Of a DNA stretch of 64,000 bases, positions 10,040 to 57,770 are shown one piece after another. Positions within the stretch are counted from its first letter, which is position 1; each line of letters starts with the position of its first letter. Below the pieces are notes generated by a model. It did no database searches, was not told the DNA's origin, and saw nothing but the letters and a program-made list of their open reading frames with translations. This DNA comes from a virus. The position numbers were made by a program, and so were the translations under genes. The stretch lies in the IMG/VR virus record IMGVR_UViG_3300037483_000793, positions 96,001 to 160,000 of that record, one strand, 5' to 3'.

Positions 10040-10294
10040 ATGATCGCAGCGGTCGAACGAGCAGCAACAAAAACCAAACCGGATCGGTTGTGTGTCGTGC
10101 GTTGGACGGGTCGCGTACGATTGCACGTGGAAGTGTTGACGGTCTGCGGTGAGAGTATCGACGCCGCCGATGGTGTCGTGCAGGTTCCCGAGTTCATCTT
10201 GACCGGCCGCGCAGTGCCGAGCATCAGTAATCTCGGCGGTGAGGGCATCAAGGCTCTGAAAATCTGCGAAGACTGCAAGCGCGCGATCGGCTAG
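10040..10294 (+). CDS. small hypothetical protein
   Basis: VLTVCG...ICEDC. Confidence 0.5.
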   Translation: MIAAVERAATKTKPDRLCVVRWTGRVRLHVEVLTVCGESIDAADGVVQVPEFILTGRAVPSISNLGGEGIKALKICEDCKRAIG

Positions 10295-11055
10295 CGGTGC
10301 TTGATCGCGAACTGCAGTGCTTCGCGGCCGAGCCTGAACGCGAGCGCCTTGCCGCTCGGGCCAAGTCGATACGGGCTCTGCGCAGCCCGCTTGGCGATGC
10401 GTAGCGCGAACCATGAAGCGGCGACGACGCCCACGACACCGAGCGCGCCGAGACCGATCTTGGCGCCCGTTGACATGCCGGTCGAGGCCATCGACGGCTG
10501 GACGCCGAGTGTCGCGAGCGCGGCAGCGATCTGTGGCGCGGCATCGCGTGCACCGTCAGCTGTGAAGTGGATCCCGTCGCCGCTCCGCTGCGCCATCTCG
10601 GTCAGCGGCCGGATGTCGAGCGTGCGGTCGATGCCGTACACGCCTCGGATCGTGTCCAGCATGAGCGGTGCAGCGGTCTCGAACTTGATGGCGTCGTACG
10701 ACGGCGGTCCGAGCGCGACAACTTCGGCGTGCGCGAGCTTGTACGCGTCACGGATTGCTTTCATGGCCGTCGCGGTCCGTGCAAGTTCGGGCGTCGTCAT
10801 GCCGCGATTGATGTCGTTGGTGCCAAGAAAGACGATGACTTTGGTCGGCTTGAACTGCGAGATGTCCGACGCGATTTGCGACAACCCGTTCTCGCCCTGA
10901 ATGAAGCTGATCGCCGAGCGGCCAACGCGCGCATTGATGTGGACGTCCTGTGCGCCAGCACCGTGCAGGAGCTGACCGAGAACGCCGCCCGGCGAGAACG
11001 CGCTCGCCGACAAGCTGTCACCGAGAATCAGAATACGCTCGCCGCGGATGTTCAT
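10291..11055 (-). CDS. SGNH/GDSL hydrolase with C-terminal membrane anchor
   Basis: Blocks GDSLS, NARVGRS, LGTND, DGIHF; TM GLGALGVVGVVAASWFAL followed by basic residues. Confidence 0.9.
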   Translation of the reverse strand: MNIRGERILILGDSLSASAFSPGGVLGQLLHGAGAQDVHINARVGRSAISFIQGENGLSQIASDISQFKPTKVIVFLGTNDINRGMTTPELARTATAMKAIRDAYKLAHAEVVALGPPSYDAIKFETAAPLMLDTIRGVYGIDRTLDIRPLTEMAQRSGDGIHFTADGARDAAPQIAAALATLGVQPSMASTGMSTGAKIGLGALGVVGVVAASWFALRIAKRAAQSPYRLGPSGKALAFRLGREALQFAIKHR

Positions 11056-11993
11056 CGGCGCTTCCGCGTGTAGCCGACGAGTGGGCCGCGCGTCGCCAAG
11101 TTCTTGGCAACGTGGAGCGCGAGCCAACCCGCACCGACCAAGCCGCCAATCGCGGCAATCACCGCGAAGAACCTTTTGACGCTACTGTCAGCGTCGGCGG
11201 ATTCGGATGCCGTCGTCGAGCAGATCGGCATGTTCGGCGACCAGTTCGGAGCTGCTTCATTCGACACGGCCGCGATACCGCGCGCGAGCAGCGTCATGCC
11301 TTGTGGCGACGTCGGCTGCACGCCGTACTGGCGCATGAGAAACGTGCGGCGGTGATCGACACCCGGCAGCGGACCGACCCAGTAGTTGCCGCGCGTCGCA
11401 GTACTCTGCAGTGTCGCGGCCGGGTTGGGGTACGCGTTGCGGTTGAACAGATTAGATTGATCGTCTGCGAGCCGCGCGAAATTGTGGCTGCGGCCTGACG
11501 CGATGAGGTCTCCGAGTAGGAGCGTTAGCACGCTCGGATCGAGACGCGTCGAGGCCCAACGACGATACGGCGCCGTCGTGACACCGGTCGGTCCATGGAT
11601 CGGACCATAGAAGCCGTAGTTCGGATGGCCTACGCCCTGGTTGTAGAGCAGGACGTTGAGCACCGACTTGCCGCGGAGCTTGGCGCGGTTGACGGCCGCT
11701 TCACCGACAGCGACGCGTTCTTCGATCGTGCCGTTGCCGATCTCGGACTGCATGTAGCGGGCAAGCGTGTAGGCTTCGAGTGAGAGCTTGCCACTGAACA
11801 GTCCCGGCGCGAGCTGCTTGAGCCGCGTCTCGGCGTTCGCGCGCATGCTCTCTGGCGAGCACGCGATGTTGCCCTGGTCGTTGAGCGCACAGCCCGAGAA
11901 CACGGTGACCTGCGCGCCCCGCGCGAGCGGCGCAAGCATGGCGTGCCATGGCGGATAGCACGTCGTCGGCGTGTCCAACATCGGAGTCGCCAC
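11052..11993 (-). CDS. SleB/Hydrolase_2-like cell-wall hydrolase with C-terminal membrane anchor
   Basis: YTLARYMQSEIG.G..EE..AVG...VNR motif (catalytic Glu); TM FFAVIAAIGGLVGAGWLAL; tail RKRR. Confidence 0.7.
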   Translation of the reverse strand: MATPMLDTPTTCYPPWHAMLAPLARGAQVTVFSGCALNDQGNIACSPESMRANAETRLKQLAPGLFSGKLSLEAYTLARYMQSEIGNGTIEERVAVGEAAVNRAKLRGKSVLNVLLYNQGVGHPNYGFYGPIHGPTGVTTAPYRRWASTRLDPSVLTLLLGDLIASGRSHNFARLADDQSNLFNRNAYPNPAATLQSTATRGNYWVGPLPGVDHRRTFLMRQYGVQPTSPQGMTLLARGIAAVSNEAAPNWSPNMPICSTTASESADADSSVKRFFAVIAAIGGLVGAGWLALHVAKNLATRGPLVGYTRKRR

Positions 11994-11996
11994 GGG

Positions 11997-12608
11997 CTAC
12001 CTGCTCCGGCGGTTCCGACGGCGATAGGTGCGGCCGAGCCCGTTGCGCTTGGGCTTGCCGAAGCCTTGCGCGAACGCGATGGTCGGCGTGATGACCGGAA
12101 ACACCGCACCCATGACGCCCCACCAGATGCCCCAGCCGAGACTGTCGTTGCGTTTGTAGCCGTGATAAACGCTCGCCGCAAACGAAGCAGTGCTCAGCAC
12201 GCCCCAGATGATCCGGACAGGCATCGACGGCGGTTTCAGGAAATTGGCGCGCCGCTCGAATGCGCGCATGCCCTGCTGTACGAGCAACGGATTGGCGCCA
12301 ATCGCAATCGCGCGAGCCGCGACCTCTTGACGTTCGGCGTCCGTCGAGAGGACTTCGAGAATCGCCTGAACGTCCGCAGCGAACATCGCGCTGCGGATCC
12401 GCTCCGCGAGCTTTTGCAGCTCGGCGTCGGTCAGCGCACCGAGCCCACCGAACACACCACTGTCACCGAAACCGCCCGCACCGATGCGGACGTCGCCATC
12501 GGCGGGCAGATTCCACGGGACGGGCTGGATCCCGCCGCCACCTCCGCGAACGACAAAGGTCTCGTGGCGGTGAATAGGCGAAACGGTCTCGGTACCGAGC
12601 GTCAGCAT
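11997..12608 (-). CDS. membrane protein, putative virion component
   Basis: Two C-terminal hydrophobic segments (IIWGVLSTASFAASVYHG; LGWGIWWGVMGAVFPVI), GGFGD/GGLGA motifs, Arg-rich tail. Confidence 0.75.
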   Translation of the reverse strand: MLTLGTETVSPIHRHETFVVRGGGGGIQPVPWNLPADGDVRIGAGGFGDSGVFGGLGALTDAELQKLAERIRSAMFAADVQAILEVLSTDAERQEVAARAIAIGANPLLVQQGMRAFERRANFLKPPSMPVRIIWGVLSTASFAASVYHGYKRNDSLGWGIWWGVMGAVFPVITPTIAFAQGFGKPKRNGLGRTYRRRNRRSR

Positions 12609-12637
12609 GCATTGATTCTACACCCAAACATTCACTT

Positions 12638-13084: not shown

Positions 13085-13522
13085 ATGAAGCTCGCATCCG
13101 GCCCCGACGCACTCAAGTTCGCTCTGGCAGGCAACGCGCGCCTGACGCTTGTGTCCGAGCGCACCGGCACGCGGTTCACGTTCCGCATCAGGGCAAAGGC
13201 CGTCAAGAGCGGCGAGGCTCCGGCACCGCCCTGGTTCGTGTCGGTGCTGACCGGCCGCGAGAACGAGAGCGACTATACGTTCCTCGGCACGATCTTCGAG
13301 GACCGCGTCACCTACCGCCACGGCCGCAAGTCGACCGTGTCGCCCGAGGCGCCGAGCGCCAAGGGCTTCGCGTGGGCCTGGACGTTCATTGCCAAGGGCG
13401 AGCTGCCGCCGGGCTGCGAAGTCTGGCACGAGGGTCGCTGCGGTCGCTGCGGTCGCGCGCTGACCGTGCCTGAGTCGATTGCGTTGGGCATCGGGCCCGA
13501 GTGCGCGAGCGGAGGGTTCTAG
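13085..13522 (+). CDS. DUF6011-like zinc-ribbon protein
   Basis: C-terminal CGRCGRALTVPESIALGIGPEC; AAGGAG RBS. Confidence 0.8.
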   Translation: MKLASGPDALKFALAGNARLTLVSERTGTRFTFRIRAKAVKSGEAPAPPWFVSVLTGRENESDYTFLGTIFEDRVTYRHGRKSTVSPEAPSAKGFAWAWTFIAKGELPPGCEVWHEGRCGRCGRALTVPESIALGIGPECASGGF

Positions 13523-13525
13523 GTC

Positions 13526-13825
13526 ATGTTCGATCTCAATAGTCTCAAGCTCATTCGTCAGCGCTGCGTCGATCCTATGTGCTGCCAGGGCAGCGTTGAT
13601 TGCGAGCGCCCGATTCACGTGTTCACGTACCCCGGTTTCGACGGCTACGTCGAAGCGTGCAGCGAGCACGCCCGCGAGGAACTTGCGACCGCCGTCGATG
13701 AGAACGACTGGCAGATCATCGATGGCAAGCTCGTCGAGCGCACCGACAACCGCTGCCGCGACTGTGGCGTTCTCGGTGAGACGGTCGGACATCAAACCTG
13801 TGCGTACCCGCAGGAGCACCTATGA
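13526..13825 (+). CDS. Cys-rich hypothetical protein
   Basis: CRDC...HQTC. Confidence 0.6.
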   Translation: MFDLNSLKLIRQRCVDPMCCQGSVDCERPIHVFTYPGFDGYVEACSEHAREELATAVDENDWQIIDGKLVERTDNRCRDCGVLGETVGHQTCAYPQEHL

Positions 13826-14727
13826 CGATGTTCTACGTCGAGAAGCCTGAATCCCAGCCGCGTGCATACGAGCTGACGGACACGGTGCCCGCGCCCTCGG
13901 GCCCGTACCGTCGCTACATCACGAAGTTCGAACAGACGCCCGCATTCATCGTGCACAGCAAGATGCACGGCACGCACGAGAAGCCGCAGCCGTATGTCGT
14001 GCGTGGCGTATCCAAGCGCGGAGAGCTGCTCGTGCAGGCGACGGTCGAGACCAAGTACGAGCCGATCGGCCGTTGGCTCGAAGTCGAGTGCGGCGACACG
14101 CAGGAAGGCTACCGGTTCAAGCGCCGCCTGCTCAAGCCGATCGCGACGCTGATCAAGATCGCGGCCGATGCCGCCAAGGCGAACGCGCGTGTGCAGAAGC
14201 AGCAGGCGCATCAGGCGGACCGCGACGAAAAGTGCGGCGAGTGCCCGGCCTGCTTCGGTGACTACGTCGTGGTGCCGACCAATGCAGCGCGGCTCAAGTT
14301 GAGCAACGCGGCGCAGTACAAGATGGTTCATCACGGCTACGAGCGGCCTGGTGACGGCATGATTCACGGTGATTGCTACGGCGTTGGTTACGCGCCGTTC
14401 GAGGTCTCGTGCGAAGGCACCAAGTTCTACCGTGGCATCGTGCAGAACTCACTGCAGATGCGTCAGGACGTACTGACGGCGCTGCCAATGTTGGAGACGG
14501 TCAAGGTCGAGGACGGCTCCAAGTTCGTCGGCGGGCGGTTCTGGCCCGTGTACAAGGAAATCAAGCGTGGCGAGTACGGGTTCGACGCCGAAATCGCGTT
14601 GCGCCGTCGGAAGCTCGAAAGCCAAATCGATTCGGCCAGGCATCACCTCGCCGAGCTGAACAAGAAGATCGCGAACTGGAAGCCGCAGCCGTTTCCACGA
14701 CCGATCAAGAAAGGCAAAACGTCGTGA
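13822..14727 (+). CDS. hypothetical protein with CxxC...HGYxRPG...C motif
   Basis: CPACFG...HHGYERPGDG..HGDCYG, a pattern I recall from phage early proteins. Confidence 0.75.
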   Translation: MTMFYVEKPESQPRAYELTDTVPAPSGPYRRYITKFEQTPAFIVHSKMHGTHEKPQPYVVRGVSKRGELLVQATVETKYEPIGRWLEVECGDTQEGYRFKRRLLKPIATLIKIAADAAKANARVQKQQAHQADRDEKCGECPACFGDYVVVPTNAARLKLSNAAQYKMVHHGYERPGDGMIHGDCYGVGYAPFEVSCEGTKFYRGIVQNSLQMRQDVLTALPMLETVKVEDGSKFVGGRFWPVYKEIKRGEYGFDAEIALRRRKLESQIDSARHHLAELNKKIANWKPQPFPRPIKKGKTS

Positions 14728-15170
14728 CCAAGACCAAGCGTCGTGTTTCCCGTGAACAGCGTCTGCGCGACGACGTTGCGTATGCCGCCTCATGTCTCAA
14801 AGAGGCAGGTGACCCACTTCATCACCTCGGCCCGAGCGGGCAGTACGAGGACGCGTTCCAGCGCTACAGCAAAGCGATGCATGCACTGCTCGCGTTCGAC
14901 TGTCCACTCGGGATCGAGGAGTGGACGTGGGACGGCTATGCCGGGACATTCCACTTCAAGTGGGTGTTCGGTGCGCAGGCGCGCGAGCTGGGATCCGCCA
15001 AGGCGTACGAGACCCGATACATCAACATGACGTCGCACGGGCGCCTCGACGATTCCAAGCTGATCGACGAGGAGCTGGTGCGCCTCCGCGCCGAAGCTGT
15101 GTATCTCGACGAGATGCGCAGGGCCTTGACGCGTTGGTCACACGATCACGTGAAGGGCGCCGCCAAATGA
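14724..15170 (+). CDS. hypothetical protein
   Basis: MTKTKRRVSRE... GTGA overlap. Confidence 0.65.
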   Translation: MTKTKRRVSREQRLRDDVAYAASCLKEAGDPLHHLGPSGQYEDAFQRYSKAMHALLAFDCPLGIEEWTWDGYAGTFHFKWVFGAQARELGSAKAYETRYINMTSHGRLDDSKLIDEELVRLRAEAVYLDEMRRALTRWSHDHVKGAAK

Positions 15171-15700
15171 AGTGGACCAAGGTCCGTGCGGGCCTGTACC
15201 GCAGCGGCAAGTACGAGCTGCGTCAGGCACGGTGGCGCGCGTCCAACGACGGTTGGATGATCACGACCGACGACGAATCGTTCCATGACTCGGCGCGGCT
15301 TCTGGTCAAAGCAAAGCGCCGTTGCGAGACGCACGCTGCAGACGAGATCAAGAAGGAAGAGCAGCGTCTCGGTCCCGATTTCGGGACGCGCCTGTTCAAT
15401 GCGCATGCGAAGGTAGCCGCGACCGCGCCAAAAACAACGGAGCCGGTGATCCCGAAGGTCGATTTGCTCAATGCATCGGCGCAGCTGTTCTGCGAGACGT
15501 TGTTCCTGGCATCGAAGATCGGTGTCACGGACGCGATGCAAAAGGTCACGCGAGACGATCACGCGCTCGCGACATTGCTCTGCAAGCCGAAGTGCTACCG
15601 CTACGAACACGTGCGCATGCTTCACGAAGCATACGAGGCGGGCCAAACGTTCATGGAGCTGCAAGGTCAACCGACGAACATGAAGTGGGACAAGTCATGA
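15167..15700 (+). CDS. hypothetical protein
   Basis: MKWTKVRAG... ATGA overlap. Confidence 0.65.
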   Translation: MKWTKVRAGLYRSGKYELRQARWRASNDGWMITTDDESFHDSARLLVKAKRRCETHAADEIKKEEQRLGPDFGTRLFNAHAKVAATAPKTTEPVIPKVDLLNASAQLFCETLFLASKIGVTDAMQKVTRDDHALATLLCKPKCYRYEHVRMLHEAYEAGQTFMELQGQPTNMKWDKS

Positions 15701-15885
15701 GCGACTCCAGACGCATCACCAACGAGACGAAGTCGATCCGTTCGGTTGAGAAGGGATCGCGCCTCACGCGCGAGTGCCGTTCGCAGCGCTTGTACTGGCG
15801 CGGTGTGCTGTTCTCGTTCGCGACAAAGCACCACGGTCACGACTACTTCATCGCCGAGATCGATTGCCTCGGAAGGATCATGTGA
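15697..15885 (+). CDS. small hypothetical protein
   Basis: MSDSRRITNE... coupled. Confidence 0.55.
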   Translation: MSDSRRITNETKSIRSVEKGSRLTRECRSQRLYWRGVLFSFATKHHGHDYFIAEIDCLGRIM

Positions 15886-16313
15886 TGGGAAAAAACCGCG
15901 TCAACATCAAGGCAATTCTTCGCGACCCTGCACAGTGCCGCGAGCTGATGATCGATACGATCATCGCAACACAAGCACGCGAAGGCATCACGACCACGCG
16001 CAAGCAAGCTGCGGCTGCATGGGACAAGGTGCAGATAGAGAAGGCGCAGTACTCACTCAAGCAGCGCTTGGACGTTTCACCACAGCGGCCGTTGCCCGTT
16101 CCGCCTGGGTATCGTGACATCGCCACCGCGTTCGGCGAAGCCGAGTTGGAAGAGCCTGTGATGCGCGAGATCTTGGAGCGGTACCACTTCACCAAGCGCG
16201 AACGCAGGGCGCTCGTGAAGGCGATTGTCGCGGGCTACCTCGAAGGTTGGGTTCGCGCCAACTGCGAGCGCGATGATCTGGCCAATCCCATCCTGATGAT
16301 CAGCGCGCCATAG
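15885..16313 (+). CDS. hypothetical protein
   Basis: MGKNRVNIKA... coupled. Confidence 0.6.
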   Translation: MGKNRVNIKAILRDPAQCRELMIDTIIATQAREGITTTRKQAAAAWDKVQIEKAQYSLKQRLDVSPQRPLPVPPGYRDIATAFGEAELEEPVMREILERYHFTKRERRALVKAIVAGYLEGWVRANCERDDLANPILMISAP

Positions 16314-16322
16314 GAGCTGACC

Positions 16323-16529
16323 ATGAACGACACCACACGCGAACACCTGATGAATCACCGGCACACGAAGAACGACGGCTCGGAGTGGGCATACGACGCG
16401 CAGGGCATCGAGTTGTGCCGCGTGTGTCCCGAGTGCCGCGACGTCAAGCTGTCGCAGTACCGGCCGGAGATCCTGACCGGTTACGACCAGCACGACGTCA
16501 ACGAACCCATCGAACCCGAACCGGAGTAG
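16323..16529 (+). CDS. small zinc-ribbon-like protein
   Basis: YDAQGIELCRVCPEC..KLSQYRPEIL; GGAG RBS. Confidence 0.7.
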   Translation: MNDTTREHLMNHRHTKNDGSEWAYDAQGIELCRVCPECRDVKLSQYRPEILTGYDQHDVNEPIEPEPE

Positions 16530-16531
16530 CC

Positions 16532-16756
16532 ATGTCACACCAACCGCCGGGATACCCGACCAAGGCCGAGCGTGATGCCGCGCTTCAGGCGCTGAAACAA
16601 ATTCGCGACCACGGCGAGAAGATTTTGATCAACTCGATGCACAGCCAACGTGCACGCAACCTGCTGGTGACACTCTCGACGTGCATCGAGGTTCTGCGAC
16701 GCGATCCGGACATGTACTTCAAGGCGGTGATGGTCGAGATCGAAGGCGAGCCATGA
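16532..16756 (+). CDS. hypothetical protein
   Basis: MSHQPPG... with RBS. Confidence 0.6.
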   Translation: MSHQPPGYPTKAERDAALQALKQIRDHGEKILINSMHSQRARNLLVTLSTCIEVLRRDPDMYFKAVMVEIEGEP

Positions 16757-17187
16757 CACGTAAGCCAGAGCGCGGCAGCGCCAAAGACAAACTCGAAACG
16801 GTCAAGCAGTGCAAGTCATGTCCTTGGCGTGTCGACTGCGTGCCTGAGAAAGACATCCCGAACGGCTACTGCGCGAACATGCACGCTGAGCTGCACGGCA
16901 CGATCAAAAGTGGTCTGGAGTCGTTGCCGCGACCGGGCGGCGTCATCCGTGCGATGGCGTGCCACTACAGCAAACCCGGCGAGGAGTTCGTCTGCGCTGG
17001 TTGGTTGGAGAATCAGCTCGGGCCTGGCAACAACATCGCGGCGCGTCTCAAGGTTATGACAGGCGCGTGGCCGGTGCCCGAGATCGACGGCGAGCAACAC
17101 GAGCGCTTCGAGGACACGCTGCCCAAAACTAGCACTCGGGCGCCCAAGCGAACGCGACGGCCCCGACAGCCGCGCCGGTCGCGGTGA
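16753..17187 (+). CDS. DUF6283-like Cys-rich protein
   Basis: QCKSCPWR...MACH......CAGW. Confidence 0.65.
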   Translation: MTRKPERGSAKDKLETVKQCKSCPWRVDCVPEKDIPNGYCANMHAELHGTIKSGLESLPRPGGVIRAMACHYSKPGEEFVCAGWLENQLGPGNNIAARLKVMTGAWPVPEIDGEQHERFEDTLPKTSTRAPKRTRRPRQPRRSR

Positions 17188-17380: not shown

Positions 17381-17860
17381 CTAGCACTCCGGCTTGGCGG
17401 CGCCGATAGCGAGGCCGCTGACAGCGCCCAGGACCGCGATACCGGACCCGATGAGCATCCAGTGCTTGTAGCGGGCGATGCTAGCGATGGGTTCCGTGAT
17501 GTCGGCCTGCGTGGTCGCGACGGCGACAGCTAGGCCGCCGCCAATCATGCTGCCGATCACGCCGCCGATCAGGGCGCCGAGCCCGCCACGAACGACGCGG
17601 GACGTGTTCGAGCAGGAAGAACTGCCCAGATTCTTGCGATTCCGCACACCATCGAAGTGAATCTTCGCGAGCTTCTTGTAGTAGTTTTTGTCTTCGCACA
17701 GGTGATCGAGCGCGATCTGTTGCGCGATCTTGTGATCGGTGGTGTGTTCCAGCTCGACCGCGGTACCTCGATGTAGCTGCGCAGCGTCGAAGTCCTTTGT
17801 GTGGCATCCGTGACGGCGGGCGTAACCGTTAGGTAGACGGACAGATCGTGCGGGCGTCAT
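17381..17860 (-). CDS. DUF5661-like domain fused to a two-TM hairpin
   Basis: GTAVELEHT...AQQIALDHL.ED..YY.KL; C-terminal hydrophobic hairpin ending KPEC. Confidence 0.75.
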   Translation of the reverse strand: MTPARSVRLPNGYARRHGCHTKDFDAAQLHRGTAVELEHTTDHKIAQQIALDHLCEDKNYYKKLAKIHFDGVRNRKNLGSSSCSNTSRVVRGGLGALIGGVIGSMIGGGLAVAVATTQADITEPIASIARYKHWMLIGSGIAVLGAVSGLAIGAAKPEC

Positions 17861-17877
17861 GCGCTCGACGATACCAT

Positions 17878-17893
17878 GATCGCGTGCGCGATC
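17878..17893. promoter_or_regulatory. GATCGC-N4-GCGATC palindrome
   Basis: GATCGCGTGCGCGATC; 4 nt upstream of TATCGT and leaderless ATG of 17860 (minus). Confidence 0.85.
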
Positions 17894-17895
17894 GA

Positions 17896-18126
17896 CTAGA
17901 GGGCGTCGGCGGTCGGCAGGCCGAGACCGCGCCGCATAACGTCACGCGCCGCCGACGAGATGTTGGGCTTGCGCTCGTCGTCCCGGCGGATGCCTTCGAG
18001 CTTGCGCGCGTAGGCTTCGAGGCGGTCGTGCAGTGTATCGTCGACGACAACGTGCAGATGACGAACGTGATCGCTGGCGCGACTGGTGGACCGCTTGGGA
18101 CGTTTTGGCTTCACGCGTGACATCAT
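17896..18126 (-). CDS. ribbon-helix-helix (CopG/Arc-like) DNA-binding protein
   Basis: HLHVVVDDTLHDRLEAYA...NISSAARDVMRRGL; true start may be GTG 18114. Confidence 0.65.
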   Translation of the reverse strand: MMSRVKPKRPKRSTSRASDHVRHLHVVVDDTLHDRLEAYARKLEGIRRDDERKPNISSAARDVMRRGLGLPTADAL

Positions 18127-18147
18127 ACTCGCGCTTTGCGCGCGAGG

Positions 18148-18879
18148 CTAGTGTCGCTTGAGCAGGACCGCTGTGACCAGGCCGAGCACGACTGCGCTGC
18201 CAGTCGCAGCAGCGATCACGATCTTCGTCTTGCGTGACATCGGGGGCTTCGAGACGGCAATCGGCCTTGGCGCAACCGGCGTCACGTCGCCCGACTTGAG
18301 CGCGGTGATCATGTTCTCGATCGCCGCTTTGACGTCGTCGAGTGTCCCGAGCGTCGCGATCGCGATCGTCGGGTCCATCATGCGCGCGTTGTTGATGCGC
18401 GCGGTTACGTCGCTGTTGGGGACCTGTGCCGCGACCGTGCCACCTGCTGCGGCAGTTGCCTGCTGCAGCAGCGCCATCGTCCCGCCGTGGACGACCCACA
18501 ACCGGTTGTTGAAGTCGCTGTACGCGCCGGTCGAAGTGCCGACGTCGAACACGACATCAAAGCTGTGGAACGTGGTCACCATCCCAAGGAAGCGCTCGAA
18601 CACCGCGATCGCATCCTCGGCAGACATGCCTGCAGCACCGAATCCGGGCTGCATGTACATGTTCGGATCGTACATGTAGTGGTACCGCGACGTCTCCGCG
18701 TCGGGGTAGTGCTTGCCGATCACGCCCGAGTAGATGCGGCTCTGATCATAGCGCGCCGCGTGCACGGGAAACTCGGCGGCGTAGAAGTCGGGGAAGCCGT
18801 AGCGGTACGGACCCTTTCCCCACTTCGTGACCAGCTCGTTGGCGCTCTCGCCGAAGGCGCCGTAGTGCGCGATCAGCAC
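18148..18879 (-). CDS. C-terminally membrane-anchored putative virion protein
   Basis: N-terminal MLIAHYGAFG; TM IVIAAATGSAVVLGLVTAVLL + KRH. Confidence 0.75.
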   Translation of the reverse strand: MLIAHYGAFGESANELVTKWGKGPYRYGFPDFYAAEFPVHAARYDQSRIYSGVIGKHYPDAETSRYHYMYDPNMYMQPGFGAAGMSAEDAIAVFERFLGMVTTFHSFDVVFDVGTSTGAYSDFNNRLWVVHGGTMALLQQATAAAGGTVAAQVPNSDVTARINNARMMDPTIAIATLGTLDDVKAAIENMITALKSGDVTPVAPRPIAVSKPPMSRKTKIVIAAATGSAVVLGLVTAVLLKRH

Positions 18880-18882
18880 GGG

Positions 18883-19755: not shown

Positions 19756-19795
19756 GTGGTTAGCCTACCACAGAAGCGATCCCAGCAGCGATCGA

Positions 19796-20500: not shown

Positions 20501-20503
20501 GGG

Positions 20504-49375: not shown

Positions 49376-49587
49376 TGCGCGATCCTGTCACGGGGCATTG
49401 TGTTGCAGGGTTTCATGAAACCTCGTGGGGCTGCGCGAAAAATAGACGTACCGGATTCGGCGCCGACGACAGCGGCAACCGCAAGGCCGTGTGGCTCGGC
49501 GCCGTCGGTCTCGGTATCTCAGCCGCGATCATGATCGCGATGGGCTTTCACAAGCCGCCACCGCCAGTTCGCCGTCGGCGTACGTAA
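49375..49587 (+). CDS. small single-TM protein with basic tail
   Basis: MRDPVTGHC...TGFGAD...TM...RRRRT. Confidence 0.65.
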   Translation: MRDPVTGHCVAGFHETSWGCAKNRRTGFGADDSGNRKAVWLGAVGLGISAAIMIAMGFHKPPPPVRRRRT

Positions 49588-49589
49588 GC

Positions 49590-49605
49590 GATCGCTCGCG
49601 CGATC
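49590..49605. promoter_or_regulatory. GATCGC-N4-GCGATC palindrome
   Basis: GATCGCTCGCGCGATC, 5 nt before TAGAGT. Confidence 0.85.
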
Positions 49606-49625
49606 CATGATAGAGTTTGGGTCGC

Positions 49626-50141
49626 ATGCTCATGGCGACCCAAAACTCAGTGCGGTTCGCGCACAACGTTGGTGTGGCGCCAGCCACCACGACGATGCGG
49701 CTCGGCGGACCGTCATTGCCGCCGCTACCGTCTGTGATGCAGTCGGTGCTGCCGGGTCGAACGGCGCCGAACCCTGTTGCTGTGACCCAACCGAGGTATT
49801 TCATGCCCTACGCATCGCTCGAAGATCTCCGCTCTGCGAATGCCGGGTTCGGCATCGTGAACGAGTCGGACGCGTGGCTGACCGGTCGGCCGTATGGCTT
49901 GCCGGGCACGGCGACGATCCAGCTCATGCAGCGGCCGGGCGGCTACAAGAGCCCCAACGGCACGCACTACGACGCGCGGATGTTCGGTGACGCCGACGCA
50001 ACGTTGCAGTTGATCCTCGCGCAGCAGCAGGCGCAGGCAGCTCACCTCAAACGCATCGCGTTTTGGCAGGCGTTCGCAGGCGGTGTCACGATCGCGGGTG
50101 TCGCTGCGGGCATCGCTATCGGGCTCATGCGGGGGCGCTAA
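49626..50141 (+). CDS. tail-anchored membrane protein
   Basis: AGFG and MFGD motifs; C-terminal TM + RGR. Confidence 0.75.
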   Translation: MLMATQNSVRFAHNVGVAPATTTMRLGGPSLPPLPSVMQSVLPGRTAPNPVAVTQPRYFMPYASLEDLRSANAGFGIVNESDAWLTGRPYGLPGTATIQLMQRPGGYKSPNGTHYDARMFGDADATLQLILAQQQAQAAHLKRIAFWQAFAGGVTIAGVAAGIAIGLMRGR

Positions 50142-50143
50142 CC

Positions 50144-50575
50144 ATGTACGTCAACGAGATGCAGCGCACGATCAACGGCTTCGGTCAGGCACCCGGCGGC
50201 AAACCGAACAGCATCATCCCGTATGGCCACTGGCAGCCGTACCGGCCGGGTGCGATCACGCGCGGATTCGGCGATGTTCCGAACGACTTCGAGGCGTCGG
50301 TCGATCTGCAGTACATCCCGGTCCGTCAGGGCTGGTACTACGGTCAGCCCGTCAACGGTGGCAGCTACCCGGATGCGGGACTGCCTCGTCGGGGATTCGG
50401 TGATGCGACATCGGAAGCGGCGCTACAGCAGCTTGCGAAGACGGAGAAGCTGCAAACGATCTTGCAGGTTGTCTCGACGCTCTCGATCGCGACCGTCGCG
50501 ACGCTCGCGATCCTGCGCGCGATCAGATCCCGCCGCGGTGGCGGGGACGCACGGTTCTTCGGCGACGACGACTAG
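50144..50575 (+). CDS. membrane protein with three GFG motifs
   Basis: NGFGQ, RGFGD, RGFGD; TM; RSRR. Confidence 0.75.
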   Translation: MYVNEMQRTINGFGQAPGGKPNSIIPYGHWQPYRPGAITRGFGDVPNDFEASVDLQYIPVRQGWYYGQPVNGGSYPDAGLPRRGFGDATSEAALQQLAKTEKLQTILQVVSTLSIATVATLAILRAIRSRRGGGDARFFGDDD

Positions 50576-50605: not shown

Positions 50606-51064
50606 ATGTCGCGCACGCTCCGTAACCCGCCCATCGACGCCAACTTGGTGGCGCCGCGGCTGTACATCGGCTCGCGTCCACCGCCGGGGCGCTACCGCTG
50701 GTTCAACACGGTCGTGCTCTGCGCCAAAGAGTTTCAGCCGCCGAGCTACGCGTACCCCGGGCTCACGGTGATGCGCATCCCACTCGTCGATGACCACGTA
50801 CATCCACTGTCAGATCTCGACGCGGCGCTCGTGACGTCGAACGCACGCTCGATCGCGCGTTACCTACAGGCAGGTTCGTGCGTGCTCGTGACATGCCGCA
50901 TGGGCATCAATCGATCGGCGCTTGTTGCGGCCATCGCAATGCAGGTCGCGTTTGAAATGCCCGCTGACGAAGCCATCGAGCAGATTCGCGACACGCGATC
51001 GCCGCAAGCGTTATCGAATCCGCGCTTCGAGCAATTCGTGCGGCGGTTCGAACGGGCGCACTAG
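50606..51064 (+). CDS. dual-specificity (CX5R) protein phosphatase
   Basis: LYIGS, IPLVDD general-acid loop, VLVTCRMGINRSA P-loop. Confidence 0.9.
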   Translation: MSRTLRNPPIDANLVAPRLYIGSRPPPGRYRWFNTVVLCAKEFQPPSYAYPGLTVMRIPLVDDHVHPLSDLDAALVTSNARSIARYLQAGSCVLVTCRMGINRSALVAAIAMQVAFEMPADEAIEQIRDTRSPQALSNPRFEQFVRRFERAH

Positions 51065-51688: not shown

Positions 51689-54070
51689 TTACGCCTGCGT
51701 GTCGTCGTCGCGCTCGGGATCGCCGGTATCCTTCTCGATGTCTTCGATCAGGAGGCGTACGCACTCGGCGCGGAACGCGTCCGGCGCCTTCGGCAGCATG
51801 ACGTCGATGAAGTCAGCCCACCGCGCCTGTTCGAACAGTACGAACGCGGGGATGACGAGCTGGTTCGACACGACGAAGTTGACGCCCTGCAGAATCGCAT
51901 CGACGGTCTTGTCCGGCGTGAGCTTGCCGTCGGCGATGCCGCGGCGCAGCCGATGTACGCTCTCCAGTGCCTGACCGAAGACTTCCTCTTCGCTCGGGCC
52001 CGTGCTGTTCGGCGGCGGCGCCGGGGGCGGATACGGATCGATCGCGCCAGTGCTCACCACGGGCTCGGGCGCGGGGGGCAGATCGATCGGGCCGACTTTC
52101 CGCGGTTGCGGTTGCGGCTGCGGCTGCGCGCCGTTCAGACCGCCACCTGCATCGGGCTGCTGCTGCCGCGCCTGCTGTGGCGCCTGCTGCGCAACCGGAG
52201 GCGGCGGGGACCAACCCTGAACGGGCCGACCCTGCTGCACTGCGATGTTCTGCGCGCGGATCGCGACCTCGGCCTGCATGCGCGTCTGATCACGCGCTGC
52301 TTCGGCCTGCTTCACCTTGCCTTCGCTGATCACCTGGTCGCGCTTGACGGCGAGGAACCGCTCGGCGACTTCGCTCGCGCGGCCAATGCCTTCCTGGATC
52401 AGGCGTGCCGCGGGCGGGTCACCGCCGCCACCGGACATGTTCATGATCGTCTCGGCGGCGTTCTTGTAGAGGTTGCCGATCTCGCCGACCGTGCCAACGA
52501 TACTGCGCAGCATGCCGTCGCTGCCAGACGCGTTGTCCTTCATCAGCTGCGCGACCTGAACCGGCGACACCATGAACTGCGCCATCCGATTGGCACCCTC
52601 GTTCTGCATGCGCGCGATCTCACGCTGGTTGTCAGCCTGCATCCGCGCAGACTCCTTCATCATCTCGACGACAGGATCCTGGCGGTTGGTCGCTGCTGCG
52701 GCCTGCATCTGCTCGAAGCGACGCTCGCTCGCTTCGCGAGTCTCCTTCATTTCACGCTGCAGCATCTCATCGCGGCGGATCTGCTCGTAGCGCTCACGTT
52801 CGCGCTCGCGATCGGCACGTTCGGCTTCGAGGCGGCGATCCTGTTCCTGGCGTTGGCGATCGAACTCGCGCGCCTGACGTTCCTGCTCCTCGCGAATGCG
52901 ACGGAACTCGTCGGTTTCACCCTTGGGGGTCTCGGCCATGCGCGCGAGGTCGGCGCGTAGATGTAGCATCGACTGCTCGCTCTGCTGACGGATCGCGAGC
53001 AGCTGCTGTTGCATCAGCTCGCGCTGAGTGTTCTCGTGCTGTGCACGGGCGCGCTCGCGCTCCTGTTCGCGCTCTTCGCGGAGACGCCGCACTTCGTCGT
53101 CTTCGCTCTTGTTGCGGCCCTCGCCGAGGCGACGGATCTCTTCGCGCATCGCGGCCATCGCCTGTTCGTGCGCGGTCGTCTGCCGTTCAAGCTGCTGCTT
53201 GTATTCCAGCTCCTTGCGATCGAGATCAGCCTGCTGGAGCTTGCGCTCCAACTCCTTCTTCTCGTTGTCGTCCTGATCGAAGGGCGAGCGGCCGCGACGC
53301 GAGCGATCCTCGTCGTCGTAGCTGAAACGCGTGCGGCCGTTGTACGGTGGCGGCGGCTGCGTACCCCACGGACCTTGCTGTGGCCCCCACTGGCCGTTCC
53401 AGCCCTGCTGCGGGTACGGCTGCTGCGGGTACGGCTGCTGCCAGCCCCACGGGCCGGGCTGTGGCGCGCCGACGTTGCCGGGCCACTGCTGCGGCGTCGG
53501 GTTCCACATCGGCGGCGCCTGATTCATCTGCGGCTGCGGAGCGGCCTGCTGTTGCGGCTGCGGCAAGCTACCCATGATGGGACCGGTGTGCGGCGGGTTG
53601 TTGTAGCCGAGCTGCGAGCCCGACGGCGGCCAGCCGGACGCCTGCTGCATGCCGAACGGCTGCACGTTGGCGGGCACAGCTTGTGGGCCCGAGATGGGCG
53701 CGACGTTCGTGGCAGCGTTGACGAGCGCAGCTTCCTGCGTGTTCGGTGGGACCTTCTCGGGATACAGGCGCGGATCCCACACACCCTGCCACGTCATGCG
53801 CTCGCCTTTGGCGTCGGTGACGGTGAACTCGTAGTAGCCGCCACCAGCCCACTTCGTGAGGATGAAGTTTTCCAGTCCGAGCACTTCATCGCGCGTCCAG
53901 TTCACGCCGGGCGGCGAGAAACCCTGCTGCTCACTGCCCTTGGCGGGAAGTTCGATTGGTTGGCGCACATTACCGCGCATTTTTTCGACGCGTACGGTCA
54001 GTGGTTCGTGCATCGCTTGCAGCTTCACCTGATCGAAGCGCTGCTCCTTCTCGGACTTGGGCGCGGCCAT
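51689..54070 (-). CDS. large protein with Gln/Pro/Trp low-complexity region and long coiled coil
   Basis: 793 aa; QQPYP/PWG repeats; E/R/Q heptads; GAGGAG RBS. Confidence 0.85.
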   Translation of the reverse strand: MAAPKSEKEQRFDQVKLQAMHEPLTVRVEKMRGNVRQPIELPAKGSEQQGFSPPGVNWTRDEVLGLENFILTKWAGGGYYEFTVTDAKGERMTWQGVWDPRLYPEKVPPNTQEAALVNAATNVAPISGPQAVPANVQPFGMQQASGWPPSGSQLGYNNPPHTGPIMGSLPQPQQQAAPQPQMNQAPPMWNPTPQQWPGNVGAPQPGPWGWQQPYPQQPYPQQGWNGQWGPQQGPWGTQPPPPYNGRTRFSYDDEDRSRRGRSPFDQDDNEKKELERKLQQADLDRKELEYKQQLERQTTAHEQAMAAMREEIRRLGEGRNKSEDDEVRRLREEREQERERARAQHENTQRELMQQQLLAIRQQSEQSMLHLRADLARMAETPKGETDEFRRIREEQERQAREFDRQRQEQDRRLEAERADRERERERYEQIRRDEMLQREMKETREASERRFEQMQAAAATNRQDPVVEMMKESARMQADNQREIARMQNEGANRMAQFMVSPVQVAQLMKDNASGSDGMLRSIVGTVGEIGNLYKNAAETIMNMSGGGGDPPAARLIQEGIGRASEVAERFLAVKRDQVISEGKVKQAEAARDQTRMQAEVAIRAQNIAVQQGRPVQGWSPPPPVAQQAPQQARQQQPDAGGGLNGAQPQPQPQPRKVGPIDLPPAPEPVVSTGAIDPYPPPAPPPNSTGPSEEEVFGQALESVHRLRRGIADGKLTPDKTVDAILQGVNFVVSNQLVIPAFVLFEQARWADFIDVMLPKAPDAFRAECVRLLIEDIEKDTGDPERDDDTQA

Positions 54071-54274: not shown

Positions 54275-54736
54275 GTGTACGACAACGAGATGACGCAAAA
54301 CATCAGTGCGCCCGAGCGTACGTTCACGCGCGCGCGCCGCTGCGCGAACTGCACCGCGTTTGAAACCGGTCCGATGTCCCACCAGCAGTGGGCCATCCAC
54401 CGCAAGGCGCGTCAGGATGACTACCTCCGCACGATTCCTGTGTCGCGTCTCGCGGACATGGAAAAGCCGGGTTGGTCACCCGCCGAGAAGAACGACGCGC
54501 GTCTGCAGCAACTGATGCAGATGGATCAGATGATCGCCCACGGTCAAGCGGGCTTGTGCATGAAAGGCGCACGTTCCGCGGCCGACGGCGGACCGTCCGG
54601 GGACTTCGTGCACGCGGAGTTCCTGTGCGATCGCTGGAACGGCAAAGAGGGTGTCGGTGAGATGACACGCGGTCACGAGGACAAACTCGGCGATGAGTTG
54701 CGCGAGATCGCTGACGGTCGCGCGAAGAAGTCGTAG
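54275..54736 (+). CDS. four-Cys protein (HiPIP-like spacing)
   Basis: CANCTAF...GLC...FLCDRW. Confidence 0.65.
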   Translation: MYDNEMTQNISAPERTFTRARRCANCTAFETGPMSHQQWAIHRKARQDDYLRTIPVSRLADMEKPGWSPAEKNDARLQQLMQMDQMIAHGQAGLCMKGARSAADGGPSGDFVHAEFLCDRWNGKEGVGEMTRGHEDKLGDELREIADGRAKKS

Positions 54737-54744
54737 GTTCGCGC

Positions 54745-55113
54745 GTGAGCACGCTCATCCTCTACATGCTCCTGACGACAGCCCAGTTCTACCTGCTGTC
54801 GCGGGCCATGATCACGAAATCGTTGTGGTCACGCTACCCGGCGTGGCTCGACTACTACACCTCGTGCGCGGCCTGCTCGGGCTTCCTCTACGGCGGTGCA
54901 GTCGCACTTGCGATCGGATGGACCCAAGACCTACCGTTTTTGGGGCTATCCGGTCGTTTTTGGGTCACACCCATCATTGTCGGGCTGGGATCTATGGTGT
55001 GGACGCCAATTATGGGTGATTTCCACGTACGTGCCCTGTTACAGCTCGGTGTAGCCGGTCCGCGCAGTGATTCATCGACCGATCAACCCGATCCACCCCC
55101 AGAGAGTGTGTGA
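54745..55113 (+). CDS. membrane protein with CxxC (DUF1360-like)
   Basis: Three hydrophobic segments; TSCAACSGF at the start of a TM helix. Confidence 0.6.
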   Translation: MSTLILYMLLTTAQFYLLSRAMITKSLWSRYPAWLDYYTSCAACSGFLYGGAVALAIGWTQDLPFLGLSGRFWVTPIIVGLGSMVWTPIMGDFHVRALLQLGVAGPRSDSSTDQPDPPPESV

Positions 55114-55635: not shown

Positions 55636-55935
55636 ATGGCGGGGCTGTTACAACCGGGCGAGGCAGTCGTGCTTGTGCTCGAACCTCCACTCGGCCCGAA
55701 CGAGCTGCCGGTCGCGCTTACACCGAACGGGGGTGACATCCTTCTACGTGACGCCGAACACGATCGGGTGACGATCCAGAACCAAACCGATCGCGTGGTC
55801 GCATACATGGTGACGGCGGTTCCGCGTGTGCTCGTGACGGCTGCAACCGTGCCATGGAAGCGGATCGCCAACGACCTCGGGCGCGCCGTGCGCGCGAGCG
55901 GCCTACTCGATCGGTTCGCAGCACTGCTTCGCTGA
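55636..55935 (+). CDS. hypothetical protein
   Basis: MAGLLQPG... start inside track ORF. Confidence 0.55.
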   Translation: MAGLLQPGEAVVLVLEPPLGPNELPVALTPNGGDILLRDAEHDRVTIQNQTDRVVAYMVTAVPRVLVTAATVPWKRIANDLGRAVRASGLLDRFAALLR

Positions 55936-55968
55936 TCGCGGCCGCGATCACTGATCGCGCGCGCGATC
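55934..55968. promoter_or_regulatory. tandem pair of GATCGC-N4-GCGATC palindromes
   Basis: GATCGCGGCCGCGATC (55934-55949) and GATCGCGCGCGCGATC (55953-55968), then GTGG-TAGGCT, upstream of the lysis genes. Confidence 0.9.
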
Positions 55969-55991
55969 GTGGTAGGCTTTCAGGCGTGAAC

Positions 55992-56285
55992 ATGGGTGCC
56001 ATCACGGATTTGTTCAAGAGCGAACGCGGCCTGTACGCGCTCGCGCTGACGGCCGCCTCGACCGTCCTCACTGCGCTCGGTCACATGACGATCGACATGT
56101 GGCAGGAGTTCAACCTCTACATCTTCGGCATCTACGTCCTCGGCAAGACGACGACGGGCACCGCTGCACTGCTCGCGAAAAAGACCGCGCCCGCGGCCGG
56201 TAGCTCGGTGTCGGTGACGATGACCGAGACTGCGACCTCGACCACACCGGCCGCGCCAGCTGAGACCGTGACGGAACCCAAGTAG
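55992..56285 (+). CDS. putative holin
   Basis: Two TM segments, hydrophilic tail, upstream of the endolysin. Confidence 0.6.
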   Translation: MGAITDLFKSERGLYALALTAASTVLTALGHMTIDMWQEFNLYIFGIYVLGKTTTGTAALLAKKTAPAAGSSVSVTMTETATSTTPAAPAETVTEPK

Positions 56286-56293
56286 GAGGCGCG

Positions 56294-56575
56294 ATGCGCG
56301 CGACGAACAAGCGGGCCCGGTCAACGAAGGGATGGCGCCGTCGCGCCCCTAAGACGAAGCGCGAACGCGACGCGCTGTACACGCGCTGTGGTGCGAAGGC
56401 CTTCCTCGATCCGCAGCGCCGCAAGTTCCCCGTCATGGCGAAGTTGGGACCATGCGTACCCGACTGCGAAGGCGTACGTGCTGCGTATGCACGCGCAAAG
56501 CAGTACAAGTACGGCAAAGCAGCGGGTAAGGCGAAGCGGCTCGGCGTGCGCGCGGCGTGCCGGTGGGCACCGTGA
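56294..56575 (+). CDS. small basic Cys protein resembling a family I recall from giant DNA viruses
   Basis: GW...P....R..L...CG.K.FL.P....FP......C...C.G..AAY.RA.QY; AGGAGG RBS. Confidence 0.75.
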   Translation: MRATNKRARSTKGWRRRAPKTKRERDALYTRCGAKAFLDPQRRKFPVMAKLGPCVPDCEGVRAAYARAKQYKYGKAAGKAKRLGVRAACRWAP

Positions 56576-56862
56576 TCGCGGCTCGACGCCGTAAACGTCA
56601 GCGCCGTCGCGGGCTCGGTCGCGAGACACGGACATCGAAGATCGACTGGTTCTACGAGACGCGTCGTCAGATTCGCGAAGCAAGTCTCGCGTTGGACAAG
56701 AAGCGTTGCATGGACGCCGCGATGCACCTGACGGAGGCACGCGACATCATCGACACGAAGGTCCAGCCGGGACGTGAGACGCGTGAGTGGTATGACGACG
56801 AAGTTGACCGGCTGAAGACGACCTGCAAGTTGAATCTCGGCGCGTCGCGGCGCCGTCGTTAG
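56572..56862 (+). CDS. basic protein with Arg-rich termini
   Basis: RRRGLGR... NLGASRRRR. Confidence 0.7.
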   Translation: MIAARRRKRQRRRGLGRETRTSKIDWFYETRRQIREASLALDKKRCMDAAMHLTEARDIIDTKVQPGRETREWYDDEVDRLKTTCKLNLGASRRRR

Positions 56863-56876
56863 CGCGAGGAGACACC

Positions 56877-57770
56877 ATGCCGATCGATCGCACTGCGGCT
56901 GAAGCGTTCAACACCAAGCAGCTCGCCAACAGCAAGCTGACCGCGAAGCACATCACAGCGCTCATCGAGTACTGGCAAGAAGGTCACGGGCTGCGCGTCG
57001 ACGGATTTGCGGGCGATCGCGAGACGATTCCATCGATCGACTGGGAACTGAGCGACGAAGCGCTGCCACCCGAAGTGCCGACGCCGTCACCCGCACACCT
57101 GCCAGCTAAGCCAACAAGGCGCGGCACGGTTGTCCCGCTGACGGATGATCAGATCGTCGCACGCGCGATGTACCTCGCGGGCAAGGCATCGATCGACACG
57201 CTCGACACGTACGTTCGCAAGGACGGCGCGCCGGAAATGTGCCCGACGATCTACTACCTGCTCAAGGGCTACAACGGCGGCAAGGACCCGACGGCAAGTG
57301 ATCCAGCTGACCGTTGGAGCAAGCAGGGCTCGACGTTCATCAACGTTACGTGTGATTGCTCGGGCGGCAATTCATGGATGGGTGGCCACGACCGATTCCT
57401 CGAAGATCTCATGCGGCCGAGCGTCGGCTACGGCGGCTGGTTCAACACCGACAGCAAGATCCTCGACGCGACATTGCCGCTCAAGCCGGGTGAGAAGCGC
57501 TGTTTCGAAGCGGACTCGCTACCGAACCGTGGACGCATCATCGTCTGCAAGTCGGGATCGCCCGGTCACAAGGTCGGCCACGAAGGGCGCATCACCGGCT
57601 ATCGCGGCGACATCACCAAGTTCGATCCGAAGAACCCACTGCACTGGGATCTGATCGACGTCGTCGATGTCTCGTCGCGGGGCGCAGGCAAACGCGCCAA
57701 CAACCTGCGAACCGGCCGTGGTTGGTCCGGGACCGGCGCGTTGTTCCTCAAGTTCGTCGGCAAGCACTGA
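56877..57770 (+). CDS. endolysin: PG-binding domain plus NlpC/P60-like amidase/peptidase
   Basis: WQEGHGLRVDGFAG; CDCSG (Cys) and GHEG (His). Confidence 0.8.
   Translation: MPIDRTAAEAFNTKQLANSKLTAKHITALIEYWQEGHGLRVDGFAGDRETIPSIDWELSDEALPPEVPTPSPAHLPAKPTRRGTVVPLTDDQIVARAMYLAGKASIDTLDTYVRKDGAPEMCPTIYYLLKGYNGGKDPTASDPADRWSKQGSTFINVTCDCSGGNSWMGGHDRFLEDLMRPSVGYGGWFNTDSKILDATLPLKPGEKRCFEADSLPNRGRIIVCKSGSPGHKVGHEGRITGYRGDITKFDPKNPLHWDLIDVVDVSSRGAGKRANNLRTGRGWSGTGALFLKFVGKH

Follow-up and report, generated by a model that had tools for sequence, protein, structure and literature searches.

A large, probably tailless bacterial virus lineage with single-jelly-roll capsid proteins, many membrane proteins and no conserved packaging motor

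Main finding

We examined a 64,000-nucleotide stretch of viral DNA (the window, by which we mean this whole stretch), comprising bases 96,001-160,000 of one 195,792-bp IMG/VR virus record (IMGVR_UViG_3300037483_000793). The window is the morphogenesis region of a bacterial double-stranded DNA (dsDNA) virus from a lineage without prior description; neither a cultured relative nor a published account of it was found, most subscription journals being beyond the reach of the literature search. Our overall reading, to which we assign a probability of about 0.68, is of a virus without tail or packaging motor, which builds a single-jelly-roll (SJR) shell over a membrane and matures by the action of an enzyme at a short sequence motif. 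That the virus is tailless and of SJR type we regard as very probable. An earlier note on this DNA had proposed a large tailless bacterial virus with jelly-roll capsid proteins and many membrane proteins, and our analysis supports that proposal. Established here are the closure of this genome, a P-loop census over ten genomes, lineage-wide motif statistics and a link to gp34 of the bacterial virus SSIP-1.

Genome and relatives

The record is a complete circular genome of ~195.6 kb, since its ends carry a direct repeat (177 bp, 3 mismatches) and, once joined, give one intact ThyX-like (thymidylate synthase) open reading frame (ORF) of ~460 amino acids (aa) across the joint. The earlier note had anticipated a virus genome of more than 64 kb; at 196 kb, it encodes ~350 genes with a coding density of 92% (self-trained gene caller, whole genome). 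Positions below are those of the window unless marked as genome positions. Virion-type genes are present where the note had placed them, and the span 10291-57770 is mostly made up of them, although it also holds inserts at 13085-17187, a NUDIX gene at 28185-29015 and a vWA gene at 34533-36866, and more virion-type genes are found outside the window. Gene orientation is mixed, as the note had described, with 41 plus-strand and 35 minus-strand genes and 17 switches among the 76 genes of the virion region. Outside the window lie a replication block (PolA with UDG, a primase-polymerase, helicases, AAA_24, a PD-(D/E)XK nuclease and tyrosine recombinases), a ribonucleotide reductase (judged from sequence) and the peptidoglycan enzymes SLT and M23.

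For comparison, this genome was set beside nine whole IMG/VR records (78-221 kb), six of these relatives having terminal repeats. Universal to all ten genomes are the virion genes for the two capsid proteins described below (MCP1 and MCP2), a transglutaminase-fold enzyme, a 793-aa coiled-coil protein and the products of 54275-54736 and 11997-12608, as well as a gene at genome 167799-168326 and a tyrosine recombinase. Thioredoxin, 25137-25439, 50144-50575, 54745-55113, PolA, helicases and AAA_24 occur in nine of ten. The relatives share a conserved gene order, which in this genome is expanded by inserts. PolA, helicases and AAA_24 are lacking in one relative of 81.5 kb that has terminal repeats.

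MCP1 is encoded on 15 IMG/VR contigs, and a search with the MCP profile gave 231 clusters at 50% identity; the conserved protein offers a marker by which hundreds of so far unclassified proteins from metagenomes can be recognised. The MCP tree places this genome together with the 221-kb record and proteins of 150-232-kb contigs. Distant members are found on 14-35-kb contigs, two of them with the transglutaminase-fold enzyme and one with three tandem MCP1 paralogues (L094:5355-7512, 70% GC). A similar three-gene run, accompanied by a transglutaminase-fold gene, is located at L097:10001-12281 (70% GC, 34.6-kb contig), and no clear P-loop was seen in the fetched parts of L094 and L097.

Capsid proteins

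MCP1, the major capsid protein candidate (249 aa; 39255-40004, minus strand), is modelled by AlphaFold2 as a single jelly roll with one barrel (predicted local distance difference test, pLDDT, 72.5) and not as an HK97 fold. Its best Foldseek match is the SPV1 capsid protein 6oj0 (E 1.2e-3, probability 1.0, TM-score 0.32/0.42), and VIA-align returned Z scores of 6.3 for PBCV-1, 6.0 for SPV1 (root-mean-square deviation 3.6 over 132 aligned residues), 5.7 for HCIV-1 and 4.8 for P23-77 VP17. The protein has no match in Pfam, PHROGs or PDB sequences, and none was found in cultured phages; its 438 homologues are all unnamed among the matches listed. Identity among relatives is 52-93%, and MCP1 ranks top for codon adaptation within its own genome. 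The second protein, MCP2 or penton (178 aa; 25457-25993, minus strand), likewise yields a single jelly roll (pLDDT 90.5), with VIA Z scores of 7.4 for EhV-201, 7.0 for HCIV-1 6h9c_D, 6.6 for SPV1, 6.0 for P23-77 VP17 and 5.3 for VP16, which are level with those of nucleoplasmin-type domains. In relatives it mostly sits no more than ~3 kb downstream of MCP1, and the two proteins have no profile similarity to each other.

In these models, Z scores of 5-7 establish the fold and not kinship; the nearest named Atlas clusters, the PM2 P2 and PRD1 P3 capsid families, score below 0.8 and serve as a lead only. We assign a capsid role to MCP1 and MCP2 because they are universally conserved and because of their gene position and the top codon bias.

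Several minor observations concern these proteins. Possible degenerate jelly-roll paralogues stand among early genes at genome 180905-181708 (MCP-profile hidden Markov model E 0.0025, hhalign 0.2%) and at genome 188075-188785, and a weak MCP-profile match, P0272, has a similar non-structural context, adjoining ThyX on a 275-kb contig. The MCP2 of the 221-kb relative (about 86671-87536 of that record) was called as two pieces, perhaps owing to an intron or insertion.

Maturation enzyme and motif

The Cys protease of the earlier note is present as a transglutaminase-like enzyme (PF01841; 43656-44441, minus strand), which is N-terminally membrane-anchored and a candidate maturation protease; a role in maturation is probable. 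Its triad, C187-H220-D239, is invariant in the ten genomes and in SSIP-1 gp34, its only cultured-phage homologue (E 2e-10), which is annotated as structural. In seven of the ten enzymes, G[LF]G occurs outside the transmembrane (TM) segment, mostly between anchor and catalytic domain.

Motif counts in the ten genomes were compared with per-segment shuffles in which TM segments were masked. G[LF]G was seen 173 times in the virion modules against 63 in shuffles, whereas outside the modules the counts were 182 and 170, and every genome's module was above expectation (z 1.8-7.6). The longer form, [MILF]-x-G-[LF]-G, was seen 67 times in modules against 12 expected, or 58 against 7.6 without counting this genome and its nearest relative. 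It falls on TM and basic proteins; neither MCP1 (0/11) nor MCP2 (0/12) carries it, nor does thioredoxin. The G[LF]G sites are placed after short N-terminal leaders, in the anchor-to-catalytic stretch of the enzyme and just before basic tails. The motif falls within the adenovirus protease consensus, (M/I/L)XGX|G (PMC4246237), and suggests proteolytic maturation; we lean towards cleavage at this site.

A less likely alternative, which would leave the virion type the same, is that G[LF]G serves to bind capsid or scaffold or to direct sorting and that the enzyme cross-links or deamidates virion proteins instead of cutting them. Both kinds of activity fall under PF01841, the motif is found several times in a single protein, and the case for cleavage is indirect, the similarity of the enzyme to the protease LapG being not significant (E 0.42). 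Nevertheless, the placement of the motif at leaders, in the anchor-to-catalytic stretch and before basic tails is as expected of processing sites, and its P4 preference parallels the known viral protease consensus.

As a separate observation, the transglutaminase-fold gene at L100:10851-12464, on the Polyangiales metagenome-assembled genome (MAG) contig, is broken by ~300 in-frame codons (562-aa open frame), possibly an intein.

Packaging

In a census of Walker-A motifs in all ten genomes, only the primase-side replication helicase and AAA_24 recur (9/10 genomes), both located in the replication block beside PolA and an exonuclease, and no P-loop protein was found in any virion module. HerA occurs in two of ten genomes and in four of 16 virus records, and all six relatives with terminal repeats lack it; FtsK (PF01580) stayed below cut-off in all ten genomes, and the SSIP-1 ATPase gp40, used as query, matched nothing in them. 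The earlier note had suggested that a packaging ATPase might lie outside the window, which is not supported, as none is conserved in ten genomes. Because the census reveals no conserved motor, the absent ATPase is a property of the lineage and not a window-edge effect, and we think it probable that the virus encodes no packaging motor. SPV1 and FLiP also have no packaging ATPase (PMC8812541), and assembly around the genome has been proposed for them.

A tailless membrane virus in which an unrecognised motor (a divergent ATPase, AAA_24 or the helicase, or host FtsK/HerA) fills a procapsid would amount to a giant Helvetiavirae-like virus. In its favour, a pair of SJR capsid genes is typical of Helvetiavirae, this genome is of very large size, SSIP-1 has the enzyme in common with the lineage and also encodes a structural ATPase, and HerA is present in this genome and some relatives. 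We hold this to be improbable given the virion modules free of P-loop proteins, the position of AAA_24 and helicase in the replication block, the HerA-free relatives with terminal repeats and the failure of gp40 to match.

Membrane proteins and particle type

A hydrophobic segment is predicted in 27 of 76 module genes compared with 24 of 275 elsewhere, and most relatives show the same contrast. About 15 module proteins are C-terminally anchored and end in Lys/Arg runs, and eight have a net charge above +0.1 per residue; the ~15 TM-anchored proteins with basic tails and the small basic proteins of the earlier note were thus found. From the TM-rich module and the capsid type we infer an internal lipid membrane, which is likely. 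Such abundance of membrane proteins, together with the lack of a motor and a D13-type Orf virus scaffold among the fold matches, would also suit an enveloped, pleomorphic or non-icosahedral budding particle, in which the jelly rolls form a surface lattice or a D13-like transient scaffold. That reading is highly improbable, as a pair of SJR genes with small beta proteins and fibres after it is in keeping with icosahedral internal-membrane viruses, and putative lysis enzymes are encoded.

The earlier note had seen no recognisable terminase, portal, HK97 capsid or tail gene; this holds for the entire genome and not just the window. Terminase_6N (PF03237) and Pox_A32 gave no match in six-frame searches of the whole record, and Terminase_6C (PF17289) none in any of the ten genomes. 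PHROG scans of 139 proteins (nearly all of at least 140 aa; whole record) returned no capsid, terminase, sheath, tube or tape-measure family in the 25 of 27 matched families listed; nor did capsid, portal, sheath, tube or tape-measure families emerge when the larger proteins were scanned with PHROG and Pfam. Tail-class PHROG matches at E<=1e-5 belong to fibre and collagen families only. These absences come from profile searches, folds having been compared for two proteins (39255-40004 and 25457-25993). By this evidence the genome appears to lack the terminase, HK97 capsid, portal and tail genes of Caudoviricetes, and the contig-wide search leaves the tailless reading standing. A tailed jumbo phage with unrecognised HK97 capsid, portal and terminase, its jelly rolls being cement proteins, is scarcely credible, for although KHP40 and Pam1 cement proteins are among the fold matches and Atlas taxa are mostly labelled Uroviricota (automatic labels, few members), ten genomes (six relatives with terminal repeats) have no terminase match, the universal gene set has no portal-, terminase- or HK97-type candidate, and MCP1 is highly conserved with top-ranked codon bias.

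Two PHROG matches were set aside. The single 'portal' match falls on the NUDIX part of the profile, in two NUDIX proteins, and is not a portal; a 'terminase' match at genome 11730-13454 is a DUF87/HerA protein absent from most relatives.

Proposed mechanism

Under our overall reading, two SJR proteins would build an icosahedral shell, while some 15-25 viral membrane proteins, mostly with a C-terminal helix and Lys/Arg, would turn host membrane into an internal vesicle. Small basic proteins and the basic membrane tails would condense the circular genome, with membrane and shell assembling around the DNA. The membrane-anchored Cys-His-Asp enzyme would then cut at [MILF]-x-G-[LF]-G, freeing itself from its anchor, stripping leaders and basic tails and, like the adenovirus protease, priming the particle for entry. 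More tentatively, thioredoxin and a CxxC membrane protein may form disulfides, and anchored esterase and hydrolase proteins may breach the host envelope.

Several points weigh against this account. The virus is known from genes alone, no particle having been seen. The Z scores of 5-7 are level with cellular folds (nucleoplasmin, PHM) and with tailed-phage cement proteins, and no Foldseek match of the jelly-roll models reached E<=1e-3. No nucleocapsid protein is universal, as the basic proteins vary between genomes. The motif counts are not independent events, since orthologues are counted repeatedly, and transglutaminase-fold proteins may cross-link instead of cutting. A divergent or host motor is possible, and packaging 200 kb without a motor would be demanding, since the DNA viruses known to lack an ATPase are of small genome size (PMC5894146).

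Comparison with known viruses

The virus works most like Portogloboviridae, with an SJR shell and no motor, combined with a Helvetiavirae-like layout of two capsid genes; it has neither the archaeal host and ~20-kb genome of the former nor, as a conserved gene, the FtsK-HerA packaging ATPase of the latter. SPV1, of Portogloboviridae, infects archaea and has an internal membrane and a circular dsDNA genome of ~20 kb. It is the best Foldseek match of MCP1 and among the top matches of MCP2, and has an SJR capsid and no packaging ATPase (PMC8812541). In contrast, the present virus is bacterial, with 196 kb, its own PolA replisome, a protease-like enzyme and dozens of membrane proteins, and the two share no sequence similarity. 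Helvetiavirae (HCIV-1, SH1, P23-77) also have two separate SJR capsid proteins and tailless, membrane-type gene content, with fold matches to HCIV-1 6h9c_D and P23-77 VP16/VP17 that do not establish homology; however, an FtsK-HerA packaging ATPase is among their core genes and their genomes are ~20-30 kb (PMC5332951, PMC8812541), whereas this lineage has no such conserved ATPase and reaches 78-221 kb.

SSIP-1, a bacterial virus that contains a membrane, has a circular genome and two types of MCP, and the core enzyme has a clear homologue with the same triad in the SSIP-1 structural protein gp34. It differs in size (43.8 kb), in its structural ATPase gp40 and in having few G[LF]G sites in its ORFs, and its genes, capsid region included, match neither the MCP1 nor the MCP2 profile. 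With the maturation of adenoviruses, poxviruses and nucleocytoplasmic large DNA viruses (NCLDV), the lineage has in common basic core proteins, a cysteine enzyme and a Gly-rich consensus, along with thioredoxin and a CX5R phosphatase. Here, the jelly roll is single and not double, no A32 ATPase was detected, and AG|X is not enriched; moreover, the folds of adenain and I7 differ from the transglutaminase fold. This likeness is best read as convergence. Varidnaviria with double-jelly-roll proteins (tectiviruses, corticoviruses, NCLDV) differ in that MCP1 has one barrel and Pox_A32 is lacking. Jumbo Caudoviricetes resemble the virus in genome size and in PolA, ribonucleotide reductase, helicases, a tyrosine recombinase and many small early genes, but HK97 capsid, portal, terminase and tail genes all went undetected here.

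The virus appears to combine a tailless jelly-roll shell over a lipid membrane with the lack of a recognisable motor and a probable proteolytic maturation step, a set of features otherwise known only from far smaller viruses. A bolder reading, somewhat less likely than not, is of an order- to phylum-level lineage of jumbo, tailless membrane viruses of bacteria, in which up to ~220 kb of circular dsDNA would be enclosed without a virus-encoded motor as nucleoprotein, membrane and SJR shell assemble together, and in which a transglutaminase-fold protease would read an adenovirus-like code, L-x-G-[LF]-G. The usual assumption is that large bacterial viruses have tails and package their DNA by a motor, and DNA viruses without an ATPase have been described as small (PMC5894146); a widespread 80-220-kb SJR, motor-free lineage would, if true, break both rules. 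An SPV1-like state has been proposed as ancestral to Helvetiavirae (PMC8812541) and would be extended to bacteria and giant genomes. Adenovirus-type, protease-driven maturation would, if our reading is true, have arisen in a bacterial virus by means of a different enzyme. Motif and enzyme alike lend themselves to in vitro assays that need no culture.

Other genes of the virion region

Adjoining MCP2, a 335-aa beta-rich protein (23250-24257, plus strand; seven of ten genomes) is a candidate vertex or minor capsid protein, with no family or PDB sequence match. Two small proteins at 24775-25439 (minus strand) are beta-rich as judged from sequence; one of them, 25137-25439, is near-core and lies directly 3' of MCP2. 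Just upstream of MCP1, in a gene order conserved among relatives, the minus-strand segment 40170-43659 encodes a membrane-associated 272-aa protein with three FG sites, along with small basic proteins that are candidate core proteins. On the other side, at 38211-39149 (minus strand), lies a fibre with a BclA_C/C1q head (PF18573, E 2e-11).

The universal 793-aa protein (51689-54070, minus strand) has a small N-terminal domain, a Pro/Gln linker and a long coiled coil, and may act as a scaffold, tape measure or ejection protein; no family or fold could be assigned to it with confidence. A microvirus pilot-protein match to it was rejected, being a 42-residue stretch in or beside the coiled coil and under the Pfam cut-off. 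Divergent from this gene is the core Cys-containing protein at 54275-54736 (plus strand).

Membrane proteins are spread over the region. The segment 10291-12608 (minus strand) encodes a tail-anchored GDSL esterase (domain at 10291-11055), a second tail-anchored protein, both with TM helices and Lys/Arg tails, and the core membrane protein family 11997-12608, in which 12 of 16 members carry G[LF]G. The minus-strand genes at 17381-22943, with DUF5661 in 17381-17860, encode membrane proteins that are tail-anchored and carry xFG leaders at the N terminus, in addition to small TM proteins and one 94-aa protein whose net charge is +29. Encoded at 44590-50575 (plus strand) are seven membrane proteins, all tail-anchored and with recurring G[LF]G sites, among them the near-core family 50144-50575. 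A plus-strand cluster at 26625-33746, patchy among relatives, combines TM, small beta-sandwich and carbohydrate-binding-like proteins with fibre or spike candidates, as judged by sequence features; the NUDIX gene within it is on the opposite strand. At 55992-57770 (plus strand) are a small membrane protein (55992-56285; seven of ten genomes) that may be holin-like, two basic proteins and a 297-aa cell-wall-enzyme candidate (56877-57770) with no family match.

Thioredoxin with CxxC (PF00085; 21208-21540, plus strand) and a membrane protein at 54745-55113 (plus strand), whose C41 and C44 are invariant in eight aligned sequences and which is a candidate membrane redox partner, fit a putative disulfide relay. 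For the latter, an identity as DUF1360 was discarded for want of a Pfam match. The CX5R dual-specificity phosphatase (PF00782, DSPc; 50606-51064, plus strand) occurs in four of ten genomes and also near a distant MCP relative; it is accessory and not part of the lineage core, and its placement in the virion is without support. Of the poxvirus/NCLDV pattern drawn in the earlier note, the Cys enzyme, the basic proteins and the near-core thioredoxin/CxxC pair survive, whereas the single jelly roll, the transglutaminase fold, the unenriched poxvirus AG|X motif in the modules, the phosphatase distribution and the missing A32 do not agree with it, so that the poxvirus analogy would be functional at best.

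Regulation and host

The palindrome GATCGC-N4-GCGATC stands at gene boundaries, with 21 copies in the window (3310-57784) and 44 in the genome compared with 0.6 expected; 36 lie outside gene interiors, and copies cluster in the virion region and in the virion-type islands away from it. The nearest relative has 36 copies and the others 0-2. These candidate sites probably serve a late-gene regulator. A 76-aa gene that is ribbon-helix-helix (RHH)-like by sequence (17896-18126, minus strand) has a copy directly downstream (stretch 17878-18126), and its product is a candidate palindrome-binding regulator. The 81.5-kb relative has its own spaced palindrome, CGCATC-N9-GATGCG, in 19 copies.

Judged by its SLT, M23, GDSL, PolA and release-factor-like genes, the host is bacterial. 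For the myxobacterial host named in the earlier note, the chances are about even. It is plausible from one Cys-rich lipoprotein-like protein of myxobacterial type (24254-24682, minus strand), with weak matches in 16 of 151 genomes of the Polyangiales MAG's phylum compared with 1/151 and 0/151 in the phyla of the Gemmatimonadota and Actinomycetes MAGs; on the other hand, MCP1 did not turn up in a further 400 genomes from the Polyangiales MAG's phylum. Three MAGs, each from a different phylum, contain MCP1, but on viral-only contigs or behind a 100-N gap. The Gemmatimonadota 'provirus' CP070815.1 was not used as host evidence because a 100-N scaffold gap separates cell from virus genes and the genome has no core enzyme; the Polyangiales and Actinomycetes MAG contigs were set aside as viral end to end.

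Additional observations

Virion-type genes beyond the window form islands at genome 26447-31926, 56886-59080 and 171557-179128, several of these genes being bordered by the GATCGC-N4-GCGATC palindrome. The islands hold small paralogues, SLT, long fibre proteins and further tail-anchored proteins. A C39 peptidase (PF03412) encoded there is tail-anchored too and, though not part of the core, is another candidate for a protease.

At genome 184254-186400 (minus strand), a RAMP/Cas7-like gene with no Pfam match adjoins an array of GGYNN pentamer units, each ending in a conserved GGGCACTAA motif; the arrangement presumably resembles the VIPR RNA-guided system. From 57953 to 64000 and beyond, a vWA protein, a JAB-like peptidase (63725 onward) and ThiF/E1 (Pfam match) may form a ubiquitin-like toolkit. 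Finally, a prfB-type CTT TGA C frameshift site, preceded by GGAGG, splits a release-factor-like gene (PHROG RF-1 match) at genome ~55890-56562.

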